The notes under the pieces were generated by a model. The model saw only the letters and a program-made list of their open reading frames with translations, made no database searches and had not been told where the DNA came from. Positions 18,746 through 29,575 of a DNA stretch of 58,786 nucleotides are shown here, piece by piece. The translations under genes and the position numbers were made by a program. Origin of the DNA: an uncultured Candidatus Saccharibacteria bacterium (GTDB lineage Bacteria > Patescibacteriota > Minisyncoccia > Phycocordibacterales > UBA5272); NCBI GenBank assembly GCA_964457775.1, contig CAYWEW010000008.1:1-58786 (forward strand). The letters run 5' to 3'. Every line of letters begins with the position of its first letter. Position 1 is the stretch's first letter.

Positions 18746-19015
18746 TTATTTAGAAAACTTATCTATCCACCAATTCTTAAGAAAAGATAGCGAAAGTGTA
18801 GATAGTAAATATCCAATAGTTGGAATAAGTGCATTAAGTAAAAACTTCTCTACTCCAATAAAATACATTACTACCGAAGCAACGATATAGGTTATTACAA
18901 TAATCGAAACCCTACGGAATAAACTCGTTTCCCATGCTTTATTTTGTTCTACCTTTTTATTACGATTTTTGATTACTCCCAACTCCTCTTGTATCTGTTT
19001 AATTTGGTCTTCCAT
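18746..19015 (-). CDS. small two-helix membrane protein (hypothetical)
   Basis: 89 aa. Charged N-terminal helix followed by two hydrophobic helices. Confidence 0.4.
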   Translation of the reverse strand: MEDQIKQIQEELGVIKNRNKKVEQNKAWETSLFRRVSIIVITYIVASVVMYFIGVEKFLLNALIPTIGYLLSTLSLSFLKNWWIDKFSK

Positions 19016-19101
19016 ATCAATATATTATACCAGTTCTACCCTCCCGTGTAATTCGCTAAAGGTGGTTAGTAAATCGCATCGGGAGACGAAAATAGATTTG
19101 A

Positions 19102-19350
19102 TTGGTGTGCCTATCGGGATATTTGGTCACCGTTAAGGGTTTTCTTTTTTCGTCCTTTGGACTTAAACAAAACCTCTTAACCTCGACCCCGAGAAACGTC
19201 GACAAAATTGAGATGTAAAAATACTGCACCCAATTTTTACATCTCAATTTCGTAAACCGACGTTTCGTTCAAATCCCACGTAACAATGTTTGGACATTGT
19301 TACTGATAGCCACACCAAATGAAAAATCGCCTTAACAGCGATTTTTCATT
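19102..19350 (-). repeat. tRNA-His-linked structured module (tRNA 3'-end copies at both ends)
   Basis: 19102-19120 is identical (19/19) to 19350-19368, the tRNA-His 3' end. Inverted copies lie at 19268-19277 and 19305-19317. Internal helices: GAAACGTCG/CGACGTTTC and GGTC/GACC. Confidence 0.7.
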
Positions 19351-19426
19351 TGGTGTGCCTATCGGGATTTGAACCCGAACTGAGGGTTCCACAAACCCTA
19401 GTGCTAACCATTACACTATAGGCACC
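19351..19426 (-). tRNA. tRNA-His (GTG), encoded G-1 and CCA
   Basis: Manual cloverleaf: G-1, acceptor GTGCCTA/TAGGCAC, anticodon loop TTGTGGA, T-arm TCGGG-TTCAAAT-CCCGA, ACCA end. Confidence 0.9.
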
Positions 19427-19554
19427 ATCTCACTTCGAACATTTTTTACAAAACATTTGAGTGTAATTCCTGTGTGGAGCATGGAATTAGGACTTTACTC
19501 TAACACATTTTTAGAGTTTTAGGAAGGAGGAAATTAATATATATATATTTTAAT

Positions 19555-19709
19555 CAAGACTGGATTTGGTCACAAAACTCCTCACTTCGTTCGAAGTAGT
19601 TTCGCGACCCCTATTCAAATCCATCGTAAGTGACGCAGGTCACTTGCTTCTATGTTAGCAAAATAATAAATACCTATCTTGGATTACAAGATAGGTATTT
19701 ATTATTTTG
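19555..19709 (-). repeat. tRNA-Leu-linked structured module
   Basis: 19557-19568 = 19716-19727 (12/12, tRNA-Leu T-arm/acceptor). Core TTCGCGACCCCT at 19601-19612. Inverted T-loop copy at 19614-19623. Palindrome at 19626-19647. Long hairpin at 19660-19708. Confidence 0.7.
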
Positions 19710-19793
19710 TGCCCGAGACTGGATTTGAACCAGCACGCCGTTGCCAGCGCTACCACCTCAAGGTAGTGCGTCTACCAATTTCGCCACCCGGGC
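19710..19793 (-). tRNA. tRNA-Leu (GAG), long variable arm, no encoded CCA
   Basis: GCCCGGG acceptor, anticodon arm CTACC-TTGAGGT-GGTAG, T-arm CTGG-TTCAAAT-CCAG. 84 nt. Confidence 0.9.
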
Positions 19794-19845
19794 ATATTTT
19801 ATTTTTAAAAACCTTACTACACTTTATATTGCCATATTATATTTA

Positions 19846-19944
19846 GAAAATTGGTAGACTGCAATATTTTACCAATTAGCATCTTTCGCTTGCTAGCTAC
19901 AGATGTCTTCGAAGCCAAGCTTCTCGAGCCACCCGGGCATATTT
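19846..19944 (-). repeat. duplicated 5' fragment of tRNA-Leu interrupted by a ~45-nt module
   Basis: 19928-19944 = 19783-19799 (17/17: first 11 nt of tRNA-Leu plus upstream flank). D-arm-like ATTGGTA/TACCAAT copies at 19846-19880. The intervening 19906-19927 is the reverse complement of 36939-36960 (22/22). Confidence 0.6.
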
Positions 19945-19987
19945 CTTCTTTCGAAGTATTAAAATACTACCATAAATATGTCAAAAT

Positions 19988-20013
19988 AAAAACTCGTCTT
20001 TGGACGAGTTTTT
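19988..20013 (-). terminator. intrinsic terminator after rplS
   Basis: AAAAACTCGTC-TTTG-GACGAGTTTTT, flanked by A/T runs on both sides. Confidence 0.8.
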
Positions 20014-20021
20014 ATTTTTAA

Positions 20022-20450
20022 TTATGCTGTAACTTCTTCTACTGTTTCTTCAACGACTGCTTCTGTTGTTGTTGTACTCCCTTTCTTGATTACACGTACG
20101 TCCTTCTTCAACTTACGACGGACATCACGGAGTGCCTTGTCACGTACATAGTATAGCTTACTACGACGAGTACGAGCGCGACGAACGAGTTCAATCTTAT
20201 CAATCATAACTGAGTAAAGTGGGAATACACGTTCAACTCCTACACCTGAAGCTACACGACGAATAGTAAAAGTAGCACCAATTTCTGTGCCATGCTTACG
20301 AGCGAGAACCATACCTTCAAAAGCCTGAAGACGTGTCTTTCCATCAGCTTCCTTAATCTTATTCCACACACGAACAACATCTCCAGATGAGAAATCTAGC
20401 TCCTTACGTGAAGGAATGTCGACAGGTGTTAGTTTTATTGTTGTTTTCAT
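20022..20450 (-). CDS. rplS: 50S ribosomal protein L19 with C-terminal extension
   Basis: GDVVRVWNKIKE..GKTRLQAFEGMVLARKHG...FTIRR...GVERVFPLYS...IELVRR. Confidence 0.92.
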   Translation of the reverse strand: MKTTIKLTPVDIPSRKELDFSSGDVVRVWNKIKEADGKTRLQAFEGMVLARKHGTEIGATFTIRRVASGVGVERVFPLYSVMIDKIELVRRARTRRSKLYYVRDKALRDVRRKLKKDVRVIKKGSTTTTEAVVEETVEEVTA

Positions 20451-20531
20451 AGAAATGTCTTAGTAGAGAGATATTATCACAAAAATTGATGTTTTGCAAG
20501 AGGGCTTCCTCTTTCTTTCTTATGTTTTAAT

Positions 20532-21266
20532 TTATAAATCCACAGGGAAATTAAGGGCTTTTAAGCAATCCTTCATGTCCTTTGGAATTTCTGAAATAAT
20601 TGTCTCTGTCTTTTTACCTGATTGTTCCTCTGGAATTTCTATAGTTATTGAATATGCGTGGAGCATAGAGCGTGGAGCAACGTCTTTTCCATATGTAGAA
20701 CCATACAAATCATCACCTATAATTGGATGACGTATACCACGAAAATGTGCACGAATCTGATGAGTTCTTCCTGTTAATGGATAACATTCAACATATGAAT
20801 AATTCTTGCCATCTGGTGCCGTTGCGCGAGCCAATACCTTATAACGAGTGATTGCTTCTCTTTCTTCACCTCGAGCGTCTTGTGAGAACATATCTACTAC
20901 TGTACGTTTACGAAAATCACTCTTCGCTCTTGCAATTGGAAGTGAGATCATTCCAGTGTCATGCTTAATATACCCTTCTACGATTGTTCTGTATACCTTA
21001 CGAGCTGTGTGGTCACGAAATTGTTTTTTAAATGTTGTAAATGCAACATTATCTTTTGCAAGAACAAGTACTCCGGTTGTATTGCGGTCTAGTCGATGAA
21101 CGACCCCTTCGCGCCCTGCGTCCCCTATTCCTTTAACACCATAGGTTTCGTTCATCCAATTTGCAATTGTATATTCTTCTTGCCTATCATCAGGGTGCAC
21201 AATAATACCTGCTGGTTTATCAATAACAACAGCATGTATGTTCTCAAAGAGAATAGGGAATTTCAT
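20532..21266 (-). CDS. RluA-family pseudouridine synthase
   Basis: VIDKPAGIIVHP and the catalytic HRLDRNTTGVLVLAK motif. 244 aa, no S4 domain. Confidence 0.85.
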   Translation of the reverse strand: MKFPILFENIHAVVIDKPAGIIVHPDDRQEEYTIANWMNETYGVKGIGDAGREGVVHRLDRNTTGVLVLAKDNVAFTTFKKQFRDHTARKVYRTIVEGYIKHDTGMISLPIARAKSDFRKRTVVDMFSQDARGEEREAITRYKVLARATAPDGKNYSYVECYPLTGRTHQIRAHFRGIRHPIIGDDLYGSTYGKDVAPRSMLHAYSITIEIPEEQSGKKTETIISEIPKDMKDCLKALNFPVDL

Positions 21267-21315
21267 ATTTGTAAATACTAGCAGAAATTAAGGGGAGATG
21301 CGAGGGTTAATGCAT

Positions 21316-21484
21316 TGTGGATTCGGTCACCAAATATAGTCGCCATGCTCCTTATTTCGCGACCCCTCTTCGGTGCTACCATTTTTGTAAACAAAAATGG
21401 ACTTCGTTAGCACCTCAGTTCGAATCCTCTATTTCCTCAAAAAAACAAAATCAGCAGAAGTATAAATTCTGCTGATTGTTTTTG
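21316..21484 (-). repeat. tRNA-Val-linked structured module
   Basis: Core TTCGCGACCCCT at 21356-21367. Nested hairpin at 21372-21414. An 18-nt perfect inverted copy of the tRNA-Val 3' end (21419-21436 vs 21487-21504) brackets the terminator hairpin 21449-21477. Confidence 0.7.
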
Positions 21485-21557
21485 TGGGAAATAGAGGATT
21501 CGAACCTCTGACCTTCGCTGTGTAAAAGCGCTGCTCTACCAACTGAGCTAATCTCCC
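21485..21557 (-). tRNA. tRNA-Val (TAC)
   Basis: GGGAGAT acceptor, D-arm GCTC/GAGC, anticodon loop TTTACAC, T-arm AGAGG-TTCGAAT-CCTCT. 73 nt. Confidence 0.9.
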
Positions 21558-21619
21558 TTCATTGGTACTACAATACTACCTTATTTCAAAAATTTTTGCT
21601 AGTATACTAGGGTGCATAT

Positions 21620-21694
21620 GCCCTTGTAGTTAAATGGATATAACTGCGGACTTCTAAGCCGTTATTCGTGGTTCGATTCCACGCGAGGGCACCA
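21620..21694 (+). tRNA. tRNA-Arg (TCT) with encoded CCA
   Basis: GCCCTTG acceptor, anticodon loop CTTCTAA, T-arm CGTGG-TTCGATT-CCACG, ACCA end. There is an A-G mismatch at the base of the anticodon stem. Confidence 0.85.
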
Positions 21695-21732
21695 ATACAA
21701 AATACACAGGATTAATCCTGTGTATTTTGTAT
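21695..21732 (+). terminator. intrinsic terminator after tRNA-Arg(TCT)
   Basis: ATACAAAATACACAGGA-TTAA-TCCTGTGTATTTTGTAT, a perfect 17-bp stem. Confidence 0.8.
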
Positions 21733-24030: not shown

Positions 24031-25038
24031 TTAATTATTTTCCTGTTCATAAACCATTTTAGAGACATTGGAAATTATCTTTAAGAGTGTGGGTATATCT
24101 TTTCCGTGCGTCATAAAACATATAATAAAAGGGTCTTCAGGAACATAAACAATTCCACAATCATGAAGTAAAATTTTTTTCTCTGTATCAAAAGCACCAA
24201 ATTTATTTGCAACAACGATGTCTTTTGGAATCCCAGAAACAATCCCTTCTTTGAAGGTGCTTTTTGTTAAAAGTGATAATAAATATTCTGAATGCTCTTC
24301 ATTAAGATATGAAGAGTTATATAGCATTCTTAAAAAGAAAGAGTACTCTCTTGAGGAAATTTTGTAAGTATCTGAATAAATGGGGTTGGACAAATTTGTT
24401 ACATTAAACAAATCATCAACATATCCTTTTTGCAAAAAATTCAAAAGTAGATCTTTTGCTCCATTATCAGAAAATTCTAGCATTATTTGAACAAGTTCCT
24501 CCACAGAATAATCCTTACCGATAACTAGATTACTATCATTGTTCCCTGTTATTTTTTTATTAATTTCTGCTATCTCCTTTGTATAAATAAGTCTTTTATT
24601 TAAGAATTTATTATCACCTTCTATTTGTTTGTAGACAGCGATAGCTATTGGTAATTTGAATAAACTAGCAGGGGAAAAGCTATCCCCTTCATTCACACCA
24701 AACCAAAGTGGAGAATTTAAATCTTTAAAATAAAATGAGTACTCATATAAATTTCCATTACTTTTTTCTTCTTCTAAATAATCAGTAATGTTATTTCTTA
24801 AATCCTTAAAAATACCGACATCTGTTGCCGGAGACGAAACAGAACCAAGAAGAGGGTTAATCAAGGAAAAATTACCACCAGCGCGGACGTTTTTGAACGT
24901 ACTAATAAATTTATTAAAATTATTTTTTTGTACTTGTTCACCAAGGAGATAACCCAGGAAAAAGAAAACTACCACAGCAATAACAATATGTACATTATGT
25001 TTTTTATACTGTAGTAATTTATCTATATGAATTTTCAT
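24031..25038 (-). CDS. class A beta-lactamase-like serine hydrolase, membrane anchored
   Basis: SLFK (SxxK), SDN, and KFG in the KTG position. N-terminal TM helix. Confidence 0.6.
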   Translation of the reverse strand: MKIHIDKLLQYKKHNVHIVIAVVVFFFLGYLLGEQVQKNNFNKFISTFKNVRAGGNFSLINPLLGSVSSPATDVGIFKDLRNNITDYLEEEKSNGNLYEYSFYFKDLNSPLWFGVNEGDSFSPASLFKLPIAIAVYKQIEGDNKFLNKRLIYTKEIAEINKKITGNNDSNLVIGKDYSVEELVQIMLEFSDNGAKDLLLNFLQKGYVDDLFNVTNLSNPIYSDTYKISSREYSFFLRMLYNSSYLNEEHSEYLLSLLTKSTFKEGIVSGIPKDIVVANKFGAFDTEKKILLHDCGIVYVPEDPFIICFMTHGKDIPTLLKIISNVSKMVYEQENN

Positions 25039-25167
25039 GTTTTATATAATGATATCACCTCCTGTAAAAATGCCGTAGCTAATCCTGTGTATTTTATATT
25101 CATAATTATATCCCTGGTATAAAAATAAATAATTTAATATTAAGTGTGAGGATTATAAGCCGACTCA

Positions 25168-25995
25168 CTATCTAATCTTTATTGACCAATCTTTATCATC
25201 TGCATACTTCTCGGCCTTTTCGTTTATCATATATTTTTTACGCAATTCTTCAATTGAAATACTTTGGTCTAAGAAACCAATTTTTTGGGCCAACTCATCA
25301 GAATACGCAGGCATTAGAACTTTATAACTTAAAGGAATTCTACTTTTTGTAATATCATTTATATGAGAAACGATGTTTGTTGTACAAGTGCTAGTTAAAG
25401 TATTATAAAATTCTGGCTCTTGAGAAAGTTTATTGGAACGATGTAACATAGAAACAAAAAGCGTCCTCATTTTTTCTTTTTCAGTCATTATAGGATATAA
25501 GAATACTTTGTCCTTACGATAATTTGATCTCAGCTTAATTACATCTCTTTCGTCAGCCACAACATAAACAAGTTCGAACTGTCTCAATATTCCTTTAAGT
25601 GGAGAATAGGACTCTCCTTTTTCCTTTCTTATTTCAACAGAGACAGAAACATATTCCCCTCCCTCAAACCCAAAAGAAACCAAAGTATGAGCTAACCCAA
25701 AACCATGACCAGAAAAAGGTTCGACCATGAACCACACTGATTCTAATTTATTTAAATCAAAAGTTTTATCATAAAAAGAAACGTCGTAATCAGTAGTTGT
25801 TCTGTAATTTATATTTCTAATATTTTTAATATGAACATTATCACCATTAAATTCCGAATATGATAAAACTTCTTGATCTTTGGTCCAGTCTCTATCCAAT
25901 GATGGTCTAATAAAAATAATTAGCAATGAATACAAGACAACAAGGACACCAATTAAAACTAATAAATACTTTAAAAATTTCTTTAGGGTTTTCAT
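25168..25995 (-). CDS. DUF4105-like membrane-anchored protein
   Basis: 275 aa. N-terminal helix, then RPSLDRDWTKDQ...VHIKNIRNINYRT, as I recall for DUF4105/Lnb N-terminal domain proteins. Confidence 0.45.
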   Translation of the reverse strand: MKTLKKFLKYLLVLIGVLVVLYSLLIIFIRPSLDRDWTKDQEVLSYSEFNGDNVHIKNIRNINYRTTTDYDVSFYDKTFDLNKLESVWFMVEPFSGHGFGLAHTLVSFGFEGGEYVSVSVEIRKEKGESYSPLKGILRQFELVYVVADERDVIKLRSNYRKDKVFLYPIMTEKEKMRTLFVSMLHRSNKLSQEPEFYNTLTSTCTTNIVSHINDITKSRIPLSYKVLMPAYSDELAQKIGFLDQSISIEELRKKYMINEKAEKYADDKDWSIKIR

Positions 25996-26030
25996 GGGTA
26001 TATTGTACTGTGGAAATGGAGGTGTAGCAA

Positions 26031-26188
26031 AGGGTGAGATATTCGGTCACAAATCTGCCTCGTTTCACTCGAAGCAGATTCGCGACCCCTATTCTCATCT
26101 CTCGCAAGTGACGCAGGTCACTTGCTACAATACATCGCTTGTGAATAGAAAAAGTACAAGGTGGTAACCTTGTACTTTTTCTATTCAA
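26031..26188 (-). repeat. tRNA-Ser-linked structured module, distal copy (A)
   Basis: AGGGTGAGATATTCGG (26031-26046) copies the tRNA-Ser T-arm. Core at 26079-26090. Palindrome GCAAGTGAC-GCAG-GTCACTTGC at 26104-26125. Hairpin at 26143-26186. Confidence 0.7.
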
Positions 26189-26351
26189 GCGGATTGGGTG
26201 AGATTCGTTCACAAAACTACCTCACTTCGTTCGAAGTAGTTTCGCGACCCCTATTCGAACCTCCGTAAACCAAAGCAGTTTGGTTTACTACCTTGTAAAC
26301 CGCACAGCAAATGAAAAATACCGAGCAGTAACTCGGTATTTTTCATTTGTG
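26189..26351 (-). repeat. tRNA-Ser-linked structured module, proximal copy (B)
   Basis: 26189-26207 matches tRNA-Ser 26351-26369 at 18/19. Core at 26241-26252. Hairpin at 26265-26288. Long hairpin 26300-26354 includes the tRNA's terminal CCGCA. Confidence 0.7.
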
Positions 26352-26438
26352 CGGATAGGGTGAGATTCGAACTCACGGTCCGATTGCTCAGACGACAGTT
26401 TTCAAGACTGTTGCTTTAGACCACTCAGCCACCTATCC
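26352..26438 (-). tRNA. tRNA-Ser (TGA), long variable arm, no encoded CCA
   Basis: GGATAGG acceptor, anticodon arm ACAGT-CTTGAAA-ACTGT, variable arm CGTCTGAGCAATCGGACC, T-arm GTGAG-TTCGAAT-CTCAC. Confidence 0.9.
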
Positions 26439-26531
26439 CTATAATCTTTCGATTAAGCGTTACTATATCATATTTTTATATTTTTTGAAACATTACATCA
26501 TTATATATATGTATGTTAAAATTAAATTATT

Positions 26532-26939
26532 ATGCGTTTCGTAATTAAATTTTTTGATAGATTAGAGGATCATGTTCGAGGAGGGCTTTCTAGATTTCCT
26601 TTAGTTTATTCACTTATAGGTGGCACTGGTGTAATTCTATTTTGGAGAGGTATTTGGCATACAGCAGATAACTTACAAGTAATGACATCTTGGGGTAAAG
26701 TACTTTTTTCTGGCCCTGGTTCTACTATTTTAGGTCTCCTTATACTGCTCATGACAGGTCTTTTTGTTTCTGTATTTATTGGAGATCAAATAATTATGTC
26801 TGGACTAAAGCATGATAAAAAATTAATTGAAAAATCAGAAGATGAAATAGAGGAAGAGTTAGTAGAATTACAAAAAGAAAAACAAATTCTACAAAAAATA
26901 GAAATTAGTTTGGAGAAAATGCAAGAGGACAAAAACTAA
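26532..26939 (+). CDS. small membrane protein with C-terminal coiled coil (hypothetical)
   Basis: 135 aa. Two TM helices, then a Glu/Lys-rich helix. Confidence 0.45.
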   Translation: MRFVIKFFDRLEDHVRGGLSRFPLVYSLIGGTGVILFWRGIWHTADNLQVMTSWGKVLFSGPGSTILGLLILLMTGLFVSVFIGDQIIMSGLKHDKKLIEKSEDEIEEELVELQKEKQILQKIEISLEKMQEDKN

Positions 26940-26941
26940 AT

Positions 26942-26975
26942 AATAAAAACCATGCACATGTGCATGGTTTTTATT
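26942..26975. terminator. bidirectional intrinsic terminator between convergent genes
   Basis: AATAAAAACCATGCA-CATG-TGCATGGTTTTTATT. Confidence 0.8.
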
Positions 26976-26987
26976 ATTTATTGAATT

Positions 26988-27923
26988 TTATTCCCAACTA
27001 AAACCTCTTCCGAAATGTCCCCAAGTGCATGTGTCTTTATATTTAACTTCATCTAACTTCAAATCCTTTCTTATTCCTTTTGGACTAAGATCGTACCCTG
27101 TAATTTCATTTTCTACTCCGTCGATAATTGCAACTGCCATGACTGGTTCACTCTTTCCGATTGCATATGCAATTTTTGTTTCGACTTCTTTTGCATTATG
27201 TTTCTTTAATAATTCAACTGCAATCTTTCGGGCCACATAAGCACCAGAGCGATCCACTTTTGTATAATCTTTACCTGAAAAAGATCCACCCCCTATTGTA
27301 TGCTCTGGGCCATAATTATCTACTATAAGTTTTCTTCCTGATAATCCAGTGTCAGCGTCGAATCCTCCCAAGTCCCATTCCCCTGCTGGATTAATGAGAT
27401 ACTCTTTTGCTTTAATTATTTTTTGGACGAGTGGGAGTAAATCTACATTCTTTGAATTTTGAAAACTGACCACTACTGTAGTAACTTCATCATTATCAAT
27501 AGTTACCTGCGTCTTGCCGTCATATGGATACACTTCAAAAACTTTTTGACATAGATTACGAGCGAGTTCATATTCAAGTGGAAGAAAAGTTTCTGTTTCA
27601 CTCGTTGCATAACCTTTCATAATTCCCTGATCCCCTGCACCACCTGTATCTACACCTTGTGCTATTTGTGGACTCTGTAATGAGATGTTACTCAACACTT
27701 TAAAATCATTTCCTACAATACTCTGCACCAAATCTTCTACATTTGGTTTTGACAATGATGTTACTTCGCCATTAATAGTAACCAAATTGTGTCCTCCCAT
27801 CACTTCGATTGCACATCGACTGTTCTTATCATTTTCTAAATATGCATCTAATATACTGTCTGCGATATAATCACATATTTTATCTGGGTGCATAGGACTC
27901 ACGAATTCTGCTGTTTTTATCAT
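26988..27923 (-). CDS. metK: S-adenosylmethionine synthetase (short form, 311 aa)
   Basis: SPMHPDKICDYIADSILD, GAGDQGIMKGYA, GGGSFSGKDYTKVDRSGAY. Confidence 0.9.
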   Translation of the reverse strand: MIKTAEFVSPMHPDKICDYIADSILDAYLENDKNSRCAIEVMGGHNLVTINGEVTSLSKPNVEDLVQSIVGNDFKVLSNISLQSPQIAQGVDTGGAGDQGIMKGYATSETETFLPLEYELARNLCQKVFEVYPYDGKTQVTIDNDEVTTVVVSFQNSKNVDLLPLVQKIIKAKEYLINPAGEWDLGGFDADTGLSGRKLIVDNYGPEHTIGGGSFSGKDYTKVDRSGAYVARKIAVELLKKHNAKEVETKIAYAIGKSEPVMAVAIIDGVENEITGYDLSPKGIRKDLKLDEVKYKDTCTWGHFGRGFSWE

Positions 27924-27934
27924 ACGTTTAAAAA

Positions 27935-28100
27935 TTAAAATTCCTCATTCACTTAAGATGAGGAAAGATAGAGATGACTAGTCTTTATCTTTCCATTTAA
28001 TACTTGCGTATTATCTGGCTGGATGTAGCACCTTCTTATTGCTAAGTGGTTGCTGATGGGTCATTGAGCCAGTTGCTCTCGCCACACTCTTGATAAATAA
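27935..28100 (-). promoter_or_regulatory. SAM-I (S-box) riboswitch with terminator, upstream of metK
   Basis: Minus strand reads UUAUCAAGAG-UGUGGCGAGAGCAACUGGCUCAAUGACCCAUCAGCAACC...AAGGUGCUACAUCCAGCCAGAUAA (P1 UUAUC/GAUAA). This is followed by hairpins 27962-27994 and 27941-27965 plus a U-run. Confidence 0.8.
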
Positions 28101-28860: not shown

Positions 28861-29050
28861 CAGAATACAAAAAGACCCCTCTTCTGAGAGGTCTTTTTGT
28901 ATTCTGTGCTCTCGGAGTACGACAACTGCTTGTCGTACGTCAGGAATCGAAAGTCCGGAGTATGTTTTTGTAGCAACAAAAACAACGAGGAGCGGGAGGC
29001 GAGAAATTTTTGTGACGACAAAAATTTACTTGTCGAAGATTCCTGCCGAG
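28861..29050 (+). repeat. tRNA-Arg(GCG)-linked structured module (divergent core)
   Basis: A 30-bp near-perfect palindrome (28852-28881 / 28886-28915) includes the tRNA acceptor 3' strand. Inverted T-arm copy CAGGAATCGAA at 28941-28951. Direct copy ATTCCTGCCGAG 29039-29050 = 28845-28856. Confidence 0.65.
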
Positions 29051-29575
29051 TTAAATAAACTCTCTTATTTTTTTAACAGAACCTTCAACACTATTATTTC
29101 CTACATCTATCTTTATTTCATTATTCATTTCCCCTTCCATAACATAATCGTACAGCATCTTAAATTCATCTTCAGGAACTGAATATTCTCTTTTTAAATT
29201 TCTATCCCACAATATTTCATAATCAGCACACAGAAGAAACGCATGATATTCATAATTATATTTTTCGCACAATTCTAAAATATCTTTCATACTGCCATGA
29301 GGACCAGACTTTACACAAGAAAAAAGACCTTCGGTTACAATAGTGTATGTTCCATTTTTTAAATAATTTTCTAAAATGGAAAGATAGTTCTTATATGCAA
29401 ACTCATGTTCATCTTCTGTAATATCCAAAATCTTTCTGTGTCCTAAATGAAAACCCCATCGGAATTTATCTAACTCAAGATAAGCAAGTCGCCCATCAAT
29501 AGTACTCATAAACTCTTTTGTAATAGTTCCTTTGCCACTTGCTGGTGAGCCACGAAAAATAAATACTTTTTTATT
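29051..29575 (-). CDS. P-loop kinase/ATPase (AAA_33 / zeta-toxin-like fold)
   Basis: MNKKVFIFRGSPASGKGT Walker A. 174 aa from the internal Met. Confidence 0.55.
   Translation of the reverse strand, partial: NKKVFIFRGSPASGKGTITKEFMSTIDGRLAYLELDKFRWGFHLGHRKILDITEDEHEFAYKNYLSILENYLKNGTYTIVTEGLFSCVKSGPHGSMKDILELCEKYNYEYHAFLLCADYEILWDRNLKREYSVPEDEFKMLYDYVMEGEMNNEIKIDVGNNSVEGSVKKIREFI

Follow-up and report, generated by a model that had tools for sequence, protein, structure and literature searches.

What are the two repeat units that stand head to tail behind the tRNA-Ser gene on contig CAYWEW010000008.1, a 58.8-kb stretch of DNA from an uncultured bacterium (the window, by which we mean the whole stretch)? 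We find that units A and B belong to a large family of structured repeats, here called modules, that is linked to tRNA and tmRNA genes in candidate phyla radiation (CPR) bacteria of the Paceibacteria type. The family is apparently undescribed, and literature searches returned no published description of CPR modules. Our preferred reading, to which we assign a probability of about 55%, is that a module is a co-transcribed 3′-trailer RNA with a tRNA-like 3′ end and that modules expand by unequal recombination. Labels of the form L001 denote the loci that were compared with the window.

Two tandem units downstream of tRNA-Ser

The initial annotation of this locus described two head-to-tail units 3′ of the tRNA gene, and both were recovered, with a period of 162 nt. 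A repeat search returned two direct repeats, 26038-26101 versus 26200-26263 (80% identity, 64 nt) and 26177-26207 versus 26339-26369 (81% identity, 31 nt). The part of tRNA-Ser that both units copy, once as antisense and once in sense, is positions 54-74. The copy in unit B (26189-26207) agrees with tRNA-Ser 26351-26369 at 18 of 19 nucleotides, as had been reported, and the 3′ end of unit B in tRNA sense reads CGAAUCUCACCCAAUCCGC (26207-26189). The association of each unit with a copy of the tRNA end was correct, but its placement was not: the copy had been said to start each unit, and in tRNA sense it ends the unit. The parts of the locus, in the order in which they follow the tRNA gene, are given below.

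26351..26438, minus strand: intact tRNA-Ser(UGA) gene (ARAGORN; Rfam tRNA, 62.7 bits)
26300..26354, minus strand: hairpin T1 (inverted-repeat search and fold)
26265..26288, minus strand: hairpin H2 of unit B, GUAAACCAAA-CUGC-UUUGGUUUAC (inverted repeat, fold and covariation)
26254..26264, minus strand: unit B antisense of the tRNA-Ser T loop and T-stem 3′ strand (GGAGGUUCGAA)
26207..26253, minus strand: unit B junction UAGG and core hairpin, GGUCGCGAA..(variable stem)..UUUGUGAAC, which holds the inner stem described previously
26189..26207, minus strand: unit B sense copy of tRNA-Ser positions 56-74, 18/19 (direct repeat)
26142..26187, minus strand: hairpin T2 with perfect 21-nt arms (repeat search and fold)
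26104..26125, minus strand: hairpin H2 of unit A, GCAAGUGAC-CUGC-GUCACUUGC, near-identical to H2 of the tRNA-Leu module
26092..26103, minus strand: unit A antisense in its 'GAGAA' form (GAGAGAUGAGAA)
26045..26091, minus strand: unit A junction UAGG and 18-bp core hairpin with three G-U pairs
26027..26045, minus strand: unit A decayed sense copy of the tRNA-Ser 3′ end (CGAAUAUCUCACCCUUUGC)

The inner stems proposed earlier are present in both units, as AAACTAC (26214-26220) with GTAGTTT (26236-26242) in unit B and AATCTGC (26052-26058) with GCAGATT (26074-26080) in unit A, and both differences between them (A-T to T-A and A-T to G-C) are compensatory. The C-A mismatch that was described next to these stems exists on the plus strand. 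On the minus strand, which is the tRNA sense, it is a U-G pair and the helix is longer than was noted, such that the core hairpin comprises 18 bp in unit A (GGUCGCGAAUCUGCUUCG / CGAGGCAGAUUUGUGACC, three G-U pairs) and 17 bp in unit B. The antisense of unit B pairs with its own 3′ copy via one G-U pair, and the proposal that this G-U pairing exists only in tRNA sense holds; the other strand would have C-A mismatches. The predicted folds favor the same strand, with energies of −38.5, −52.0, and −34.4 kcal/mol in tRNA sense versus −27.4, −45.5, and −32.4 kcal/mol in antisense, i.e., the tRNA-sense strand is more stable by 2-11 kcal/mol.

T1 has perfect 18-nt arms (26308-26325 / 26332-26349), of which the 5′ arm is A-rich and the 3′ arm U-rich, and it is extended by CCGCACA/UGUGCGG, in which the final bases of the tRNA pair with a short antisense past the hairpin. 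T2, the counterpart of T1 in unit A, is partially homologous to T1 and also has a U-rich 3′ arm. A consensus terminator scan called neither hairpin, the U run lying inside the extended stem; T1 may act as a terminator. In unit A the antisense carries GA in place of UC relative to the exact antisense, and the sense copy matches the tRNA at 15 of 18 positions once a 2-nt insertion is allowed. A covariance model of the family matches unit B at 26186-26307 (89.6 bits) and unit A at 26024-26145 (104.7 bits). A tRNA gene, a tRNA pseudogene, or a tmRNA in 26027-26350 was considered and rejected, as ARAGORN and Rfam make no call there and only the 3′ quarter of the tRNA is copied. Rfam searches at the gathering and E ≤ 10 thresholds returned tRNA, tmRNA, and SAM riboswitch only. 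Overlapping the decayed copy of unit A is a sigma70-like site, TTGCTA-17-TACAAT (26002-26030, minus strand), which ends 7 nt before the ATG of an Lnb_N-domain gene; judged from its sequence, it may be a promoter built from the decayed repeat, in which case the mRNA would be nearly leaderless.

A tandem duplication next to a tRNA gene could also be produced during assembly. In two independent Logan assemblies (SRR10036065 and SRR10036059), unit A and the 3′ half of unit B are found without a single base difference. The agreement reaches the core of unit B, and the whole junction of unit B, T1, and the tRNA is spanned by neither. Because both match exactly, duplication by an assembly artefact is unlikely. 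The two Logan contigs (L086 and L087, equivalent to 25990-26238 of the window) end inside the unit B core, which is identical to the tRNA-Leu core there. A second look-up by exact protein returned a 740-nt contig only and was uninformative. Synteny was also sought in metagenome contigs via the downstream Lnb_N protein; this gave 18 loci at ≤63% identity, none of which has an adjacent tRNA or module.

A module family behind tRNA and tmRNA genes

The related modules share a common plan. In tRNA sense, the tRNA is followed by a perfect hairpin whose 5′ arm is A-rich and whose 3′ arm is U-rich, often by an exact complement of tRNA positions 65-74, and by AG. Next come H2, a 9-bp hairpin with the loop CUGC, and CG(U). 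These are followed by an exact 11-nt complement of tRNA positions 54-64, which always has GAA at its end, and by UAGG. The core hairpin has the base GGUCGCGAA/UUUGUGACC with two G-U pairs and a variable distal stem. The module closes with a sense copy of the local tRNA that extends from C56 to the discriminator (73/74) or a few bases past it. The flanks always match the neighboring tRNA, and the cassette parts are common to several loci.

A pattern scan of species-representative genomes found 67 loci, all of them in CPR/Patescibacteria metagenome assemblies (∼39 assemblies, counted from accession prefixes) that are labeled Paceibacterota, Parcubacteria, Nomurabacteria, some 'Saccharibacteria', and one Gracilibacteria. 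The window and loci L009, L024, and L044 have the same gene order, with coding DNA that is ∼75-78% identical, and the window therefore probably stems from an organism of this kind. A same-strand tRNA lies ≤300 nt upstream of 59 of 80 motif matches, usually at 85-100 nt, and these tRNAs cover 13 amino-acid types. A hidden Markov model built from 65 modules places a module ≤450 nt downstream of 92 of the 131 tRNAs in the loci and the window, a fraction that is biased upward by the selection of loci for holding a module. Arrays of two to three modules stand behind 16 of the 131 tRNAs, which fits the earlier suggestion of repeated insertion or duplication at one tRNA. Altogether the family is found behind at least 15 tRNA amino-acid types and also behind tmRNA, as in L030 (385-1065, minus strand) and L031 (6122-6647, minus strand). 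Since tmRNA genes carry modules too, the linkage appears to be to tRNA-like 3′ ends and not to tRNAs as such. The tmRNA modules hold an antisense of the tmRNA 3′ end (GUGGAGAUGG..GCGGGAUCGAA). The pattern had no match in 2.9 million IMG/VR viral contigs, and we rejected a phage or plasmid origin on this basis.

Two further features recur at these loci. A GCGAAGC mini-hairpin directly follows the tRNA in L024, L035, L052, L066, and L067. In L003, L009, L038, L044, and others, the tRNA 3′ end, hairpin, and antisense form perfect palindromes with arms of ∼30 bp, which to our knowledge is unusually long for bacterial chromosomes.

To assess whether the structure of the modules is under selection, as had been argued from the two units, we asked in an alignment of 65 related modules whether bases pair more often than by chance. 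Cells at paired positions are paired in 95.9% of cases versus 77.5% in column shuffles and 34-42% when the partners are slid, and double changes occur in 357 cells versus 120 expected, affecting 17 of 27 pairs; the alignment comprises few related types, so that cells are not independent events, and the invariant base of the core was fixed by the search pattern. All nine pairs of H2 covary (e.g., AU 26, CG 22, UA 11), as do the four variable pairs of the core stem (e.g., AU 29, GC 18, UA 16) and the antisense/copy helix. The CUGC loop and the GAAUAGG bulge are conserved, though the pattern fixed only AGG. Paired changes exceed those in shuffles, and selection on the structure of the modules is supported. 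The module of L050 no longer resembles its tRNA and has kept its internal helix, which argues for selection on the fold itself.

Modules also track the tRNA beside which they lie. The 3′ copy matches the local tRNA at an average of 13.7 of 18 positions versus 9.3 for non-cognate tRNAs, and the antisense at 9.2 of 11 versus 7.1; a perfect 19/19 copy is present in 12 of 59 related modules. At sites where tRNAs that share an anticodon differ between genomes, the copy has the base of its own tRNA in 156 cases, that of the other genome's tRNA in 48, and neither in 24; for the antisense the numbers are 67, 16, and 25, respectively (pairwise counts, which are not independent). In L007, L050, and L063 the 3′ copy is closer to the cognate tRNA of another genome than to the local one, a pattern that hints at tRNA replacement or an imported module. 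The acceptor antisense is the Watson-Crick complement of the tRNA 3′ strand and not a copy of the 5′ strand, as exemplified by L003 (tRNA GUCCCUA, module GCCCCCA). It matches at ≥8 of 10 positions in 23 of 58 modules and is perfect in L003 and L009, where the copy of the unit has lost its acceptor part. The sense copies continue into the genomic flank and not into CCA; their source is therefore DNA or a primary transcript and not mature tRNA. On the same grounds, an origin by reverse transcription of mature tRNA was rejected by inspection.

In the window, modules lie 3′ of five of the six tRNAs (Leu, His, Val, Ser with two units, and Arg-GCG), and the flank of tRNA-Arg(UCU) reads as a hairpin only. 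A full-sensitivity covariance-model scan of the whole window found significant copies behind tRNAs only. The 16-mer GAATAGGGGTCGCGAA (GAAUAGGGGUCGCGAA) has four copies in the window at ≤3 mismatches versus 0.2 expected, three exact and one with a single mismatch; they lie in units A and B and in the tRNA-Leu and tRNA-Val modules, all behind a tRNA. The modules of the other tRNAs are as follows.

19547..19708, minus strand: tRNA-Leu(GAG) module (covariance model, 104.3 bits)
19103..19350, minus strand: divergent tRNA-His module (read by eye; covariance model weak, 9.9 bits)
21304..21483, minus strand: tRNA-Val(UAC) module (covariance model, 30.3 bits)
28862..29051, plus strand: tRNA-Arg(GCG) module of a second subtype (covariance model, 37.9 bits)

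The tRNA-Leu module consists of a hairpin, H2, the antisense AUGGAUUUGAA, the core, and the tRNA-Leu 3′-end copy CAAAUCCAGUCU; its core is nearly identical to that of unit B and its H2 to that of unit A. The tRNA-His module begins with a hairpin, an acceptor-strand antisense, H2 (19280-19303), and the antisense GGGAUUUGAAC (19267-19277), and continues with an extra hairpin, the core GGGGUCGAGG..GGUGACC (19125-19190), and a 3′-end copy that includes ACCA. The tRNA-His gene itself (19351-19425, minus strand) encodes CCA, and the other five tRNA genes of the window do not. Behind tRNA-Val, a hairpin is followed by an unbroken 19-nt antisense GGAAAUAGAGGAUUCGAAC (21418-21436), a nested hairpin, the core (21325-21364), and a short decayed copy; this subtype also stands behind tRNA-Val in L013, with compensatory changes. 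The tRNA-Arg(GCG) module has a hairpin, the antisense GUGCUCUCGG, an H2 with CUGC loop (28917-28938), the antisense CAGGAAUCGAA (28941-28951), two hairpins, and the copy AUUCCUGCCGAG, and its subtype was seen again in L005 and L032. Elsewhere in the window, a SAM riboswitch (RF00162, 60.3 bits, 27982-28099, minus strand) lies directly 5′ of a short metK-like open reading frame (ORF; 26988-27923, minus strand), which is an ordinary arrangement.

Arrays and orphan modules point to turnover within the family. Among the arrays inspected, decay is usually most advanced in the 3′ copy that is most distant from the tRNA. Modules that have no upstream tRNA occur in L001 (400-740, plus strand), L019, L027, L045, L047, and L059 and are preceded by a stub that runs from AAAGUUC to GCAC. 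The orphan arrays of L001 contain an internal copy that matches the tRNA-Leu(UAG) of L020 and L033 at 19/19, and their cores are starting to decay. A single genome can hold a near-identical unit twice, behind a tRNA and behind a decayed stub. L059 has two near-identical unit copies, and L053 and L019 share a 168-nt unit pair with two mismatches that starts in the last 7 nt of the tRNA and ends 4 nt past the copy. In L012 (540-785, plus strand), a tRNA-Gln-like 5′ part (acceptor, D arm, anticodon arm, and T-stem 5′ strand) runs into a module core and a truncated copy and is followed by an intact tRNA-Gln; judged from the sequence, a tRNA seems to have been joined to its own module by a deletion.

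Comparison with E. coli TLRs and other known systems

The closest parallel to the modules in layout is found in the tRNA-linked repeats (TLRs) of Escherichia coli K-12, which has 22 of them at ten loci, one to five per locus (PMC8144298). According to that source, which cites Egan and Landy (1978) and Rudd (1999), TLRs include RtT/rttR behind tyrT-tyrV and rrA/rrB/rrF behind 5S rRNA. We fetched the E. coli tyrT locus with its 178-bp repeats for comparison. Each repeat is an Rfam RtT match (133-138 bits), and in the Rfam structure its T-arm/acceptor antisense GGGGAAGGAUGAGAA, with which the unit starts, pairs with the 19-nt 3′ copy. The rttR annotation begins immediately past tyrV and closes with the CCA of the first copy.

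TLRs and CPR modules both lie directly 3′ of a stable-RNA gene, on the same strand and after a first hairpin or terminator. Both form tandem units (one to five in TLRs, with a 178-nt period at tyrT; a 162-nt period at tRNA-Ser), and in both the last 18-19 nt of a unit repeat the 3′ end of the gene upstream. They share the antisense/sense closing helix, which is part of the Rfam consensus for RtT. The UC-to-GA change ('GAGAA', opposite G57 and A58) occurs in RtT, in unit A of the window (AUGAGAAU), and in many CPR modules. GCGAAGC-type mini-hairpins stand mid-unit in both, including module cores and the E. coli cores of RtT and rrB (L089 and L090). By position, 3′ repeat, and head-to-tail arrangement, units A and B have what defines a TLR. 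However, the CPR core (UAGG and GGUCGCGAA..UUUGUGACC) and the CUGC-loop H2 have no E. coli counterpart, TLRs occupy ten loci whereas most tRNAs and tmRNA carry a module in CPR, and CCA is encoded in the E. coli copies but not in most CPR tRNA genes. CPR modules thus appear to be the counterpart of TLRs in layout and to be set apart by sequence. The E. coli rrB locus follows the same plan of gene, hairpin, middle, and copy, with a T-loop-like sense/antisense pair. This pair (L090 230-262, E. coli rrnB; CAAAUCCGCC..GGCGGAUUUGAAC) is present despite the 5S neighbor, and the rrB TLR may derive from a tRNA-linked unit.

Other systems resemble the modules in part. Like the attL/attR sites of islands and prophages, modules place a direct repeat of the tRNA 3′ part (T loop to end) around an insert, form tandem arrays, have a displaced copy that decays, and occur at tmRNA. 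They differ from att elements in being ∼140 nt long with no integrase or cargo, in having one core family for at least 15 tRNAs, and in carrying a target antisense with RNA-style covariation; at tRNA-Ser the repeats lie 162 nt apart, and the space between them is filled with hairpins and contains no credible gene. Modules are short, abundant, intergenic, hairpin-forming, strand-specific, mosaic, and often near terminators, as are REP, REPIN, and MITE-like elements, but their flanks are copied from the neighboring gene and all copies in the window are behind tRNAs; the usual terminal inverted repeats and short target duplications are absent. The small RNA 3′ETS-leuZ likewise comes from a tRNA transcript as a trailer freed by 3′ processing but lacks any repeat of the tRNA end. 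T-box leaders respond to a tRNA, yet they are located 5′ of mRNAs and recognize the anticodon and NCCA end by base pairing; modules do neither. Four further candidates were rejected by inspection: a hammerhead-like ribozyme (three-way junction with only 2+2 linker bases), a retron msr/msd (no reverse transcriptase; a single 45-nt hairpin), a standard k-turn (tandem G-A pairs on the wrong side of the bulge), and group II intron or IS200/605 ends (no matching motifs).

Proposed mechanism and alternative explanations

From the observed anatomy, distribution, covariation, strand, and local-tRNA tracking of the modules we move here to their transcription, processing, and any cellular role, which we infer. 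Transcription would run in tRNA sense and yield the units as a 3′ trailer of the tRNA, either by reading through the hairpin or, where no hairpin intervenes, directly. Co-transcription is suggested by the tRNA-Ser locus scan, which found no promoter-like site between the tRNA and the units, and by the tRNA-Cys modules, which have no intervening hairpin. Each unit would then fold in three parts: the 11-nt antisense would pair with the unit's own copy of the T loop and T-stem 3′ strand, this helix would bear the conserved 7-nt bulge GAAUAGG and the core hairpin, and H2 would branch upstream. Such a fold would present a tRNA-identical 3′ tail, comprising the acceptor 3′ strand and the discriminator, and the tRNA 3′-end machinery may trim the trailer to a separate small RNA, a process known from RtT and RrB of E. 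coli. The antisense may instead pair with the 3′ quarter of the real tRNA, giving two competing folds of a read-through transcript. Arrays would gain and lose units through unequal recombination at the ∼19-nt repeats, and gene conversion would shuffle cores and H2 hairpins between loci.

Several points weigh against this reading. At tRNA-Val a module is present in the window and absent in L024 and L015 before the same downstream gene; because modules are present or absent at orthologous tRNAs, they are dispensable locus by locus. The near-identical units at tRNA-less sites look like mobility. Distal cores are nearly identical across species with ∼75% coding identity, which is not usual in RNAs that are inherited vertically. 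Polymerase may seldom get past a long perfect hairpin, and both the G-U (G-T) pairs and the covariation fit a folded single strand of DNA equally. As for the parallel in E. coli, sequence homology to TLRs is not detectable in either direction: RF00391 (gathering threshold 45 bits) has no match at E ≤ 10 in 25000-27500 or 18900-21700, and the CPR covariance model has none in E. coli. TLRs themselves have been known since 1978 and are still without a function (PMC8144298).

The facts of turnover fit gene conversion with unequal crossing-over, or genuine mobility. Under the latter, modules would be non-autonomous mobile DNA cassettes that target tRNA and tmRNA genes at their 3′ ends; the folded single strand would rebuild a duplex image of the target, to be used by a recombinase encoded elsewhere in the manner of an integron attC or the CTX-phi attP, and the tandem units would be repeated insertions. 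tRNA and tmRNA genes are classical integration targets, and direct repeats of the tRNA 3′ part flank the units, which form tandem arrays. The presence or absence of modules at orthologous tRNAs points the same way, as do core types that are near-identical between species, cores and H2 hairpins that are mosaic between loci, and ∼99%-identical unit-sized duplicates that begin in the last 4-7 nt of the tRNA, at decayed-stub sites. However, the 99%-identical pairs can also be accounted for by gene conversion among homologous units. The units, only ∼140-160 nt long, have no linked integrase or transposase, and one core stands behind at least 15 tRNA types with matching flanks, for which we know of no recombinase system that would offer an explanation. 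The modules have no match among the viral contigs, and the internal pairing that L050 kept despite its mismatch to the tRNA argues for selection on the fold. We consider such a cassette unlikely, though it is the main rival of our preferred reading. The view that the units are neutral debris, be it decaying att scars, plain tandem duplication, or an assembly artefact, draws on the same repeats, which resemble integration scars, on the decay of the copy farthest from the tRNA, and on contigs that break inside the repeat. It is contradicted by the strong covariation, and the loop and bulge are conserved across ∼39 assemblies, copy and antisense track the local tRNA, and independent assemblies agree base for base; we give it next to no credence.

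Two regulatory roles were also weighed. The antisense could act in cis on tRNA maturation, as a switch or decoy in which 21 nt of antisense invade the 3′ quarter of the tRNA and the sense copy competes with or replaces that quarter, setting the yield of functional tRNA. The 10-nt complement of tRNA 65-74 and the 11-nt complement of 54-64 do make up a split 21-nt antisense, and the acceptor antisense stays perfect where the copy lost its acceptor part (L003 and L009). In addition, RNAfold predicts the invaded form as the minimum-energy structure of tRNA-Ser, T1, and unit B: the antisense is paired to the 3′ quarter of the tRNA itself, and the unit B copy lies opposite the tRNA 5′ acceptor strand. 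Competing folds are therefore possible and form the basis of the switch hypothesis, but this is a thermodynamic prediction alone, and real tRNAs fold co-transcriptionally and are stabilized by tertiary contacts. Moreover, the acceptor antisense is missing in many modules, falling short of 8/10 in all but the 23 of 58 noted above, and the perfect palindrome could stem from a template-switch 'correction' of the hairpin. A switch of this kind seems quite improbable.

Alternatively, modules could be leaders or attenuators for the downstream gene, akin to a T-box or a riboswitch. A distance of 30 nt separates unit A from the downstream start codon of the Lnb_N-domain gene, the Ser, Val, and His modules of the window are followed by same-strand genes, and a same-strand ORF is next to 61 of 91 terminal modules. 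The ORF is convergent in the other 30 of 91, including that of Arg(GCG) in the window, and with one third of terminal modules facing convergent ORFs we rejected regulation of downstream genes as a general role. In addition, the downstream genes are mutually unrelated, no T-box or riboswitch model of Rfam matches the modules, no segment is complementary to an anticodon, and a promoter-like site lies between unit A and its gene. We hold a leader function to be very improbable.

In the boldest form of the trailer model, which we regard as improbable, nearly every tRNA and tmRNA gene of this CPR lineage has a cognate trailer whose 21-nt antisense can invade the 3′ quarter of the tRNA and which offers an identical spare 3′ quarter. 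If true, cognate trailers would act across the genome as a switch, or a store of spare parts, for the 3′ end of each particular tRNA, the resident gene would be the template from which their antisense and sense segments are copied, and the E. coli TLRs would be a relic of the same ancient mechanism. On a practical level, modules break short-read assemblies beside tRNA genes, and current annotation misses them. The CPR family offers what the E. coli family lacked: hundreds of diverse sequences for testing, natural pairs of loci with and without a module, and the invariant motifs GAAUAGG, two G-U pairs, and the CUGC loop. TLRs have so far been treated as an enterobacterial curiosity of 22 copies. 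The same layout, a 3′-end copy, a pairing antisense, and tandem arrays around a different core, is now found in a very distant lineage, which greatly raises the likelihood that such repeats have a general function under selection at stable-RNA 3′ ends, be it in processing, in folding control, or as a recombination substrate.

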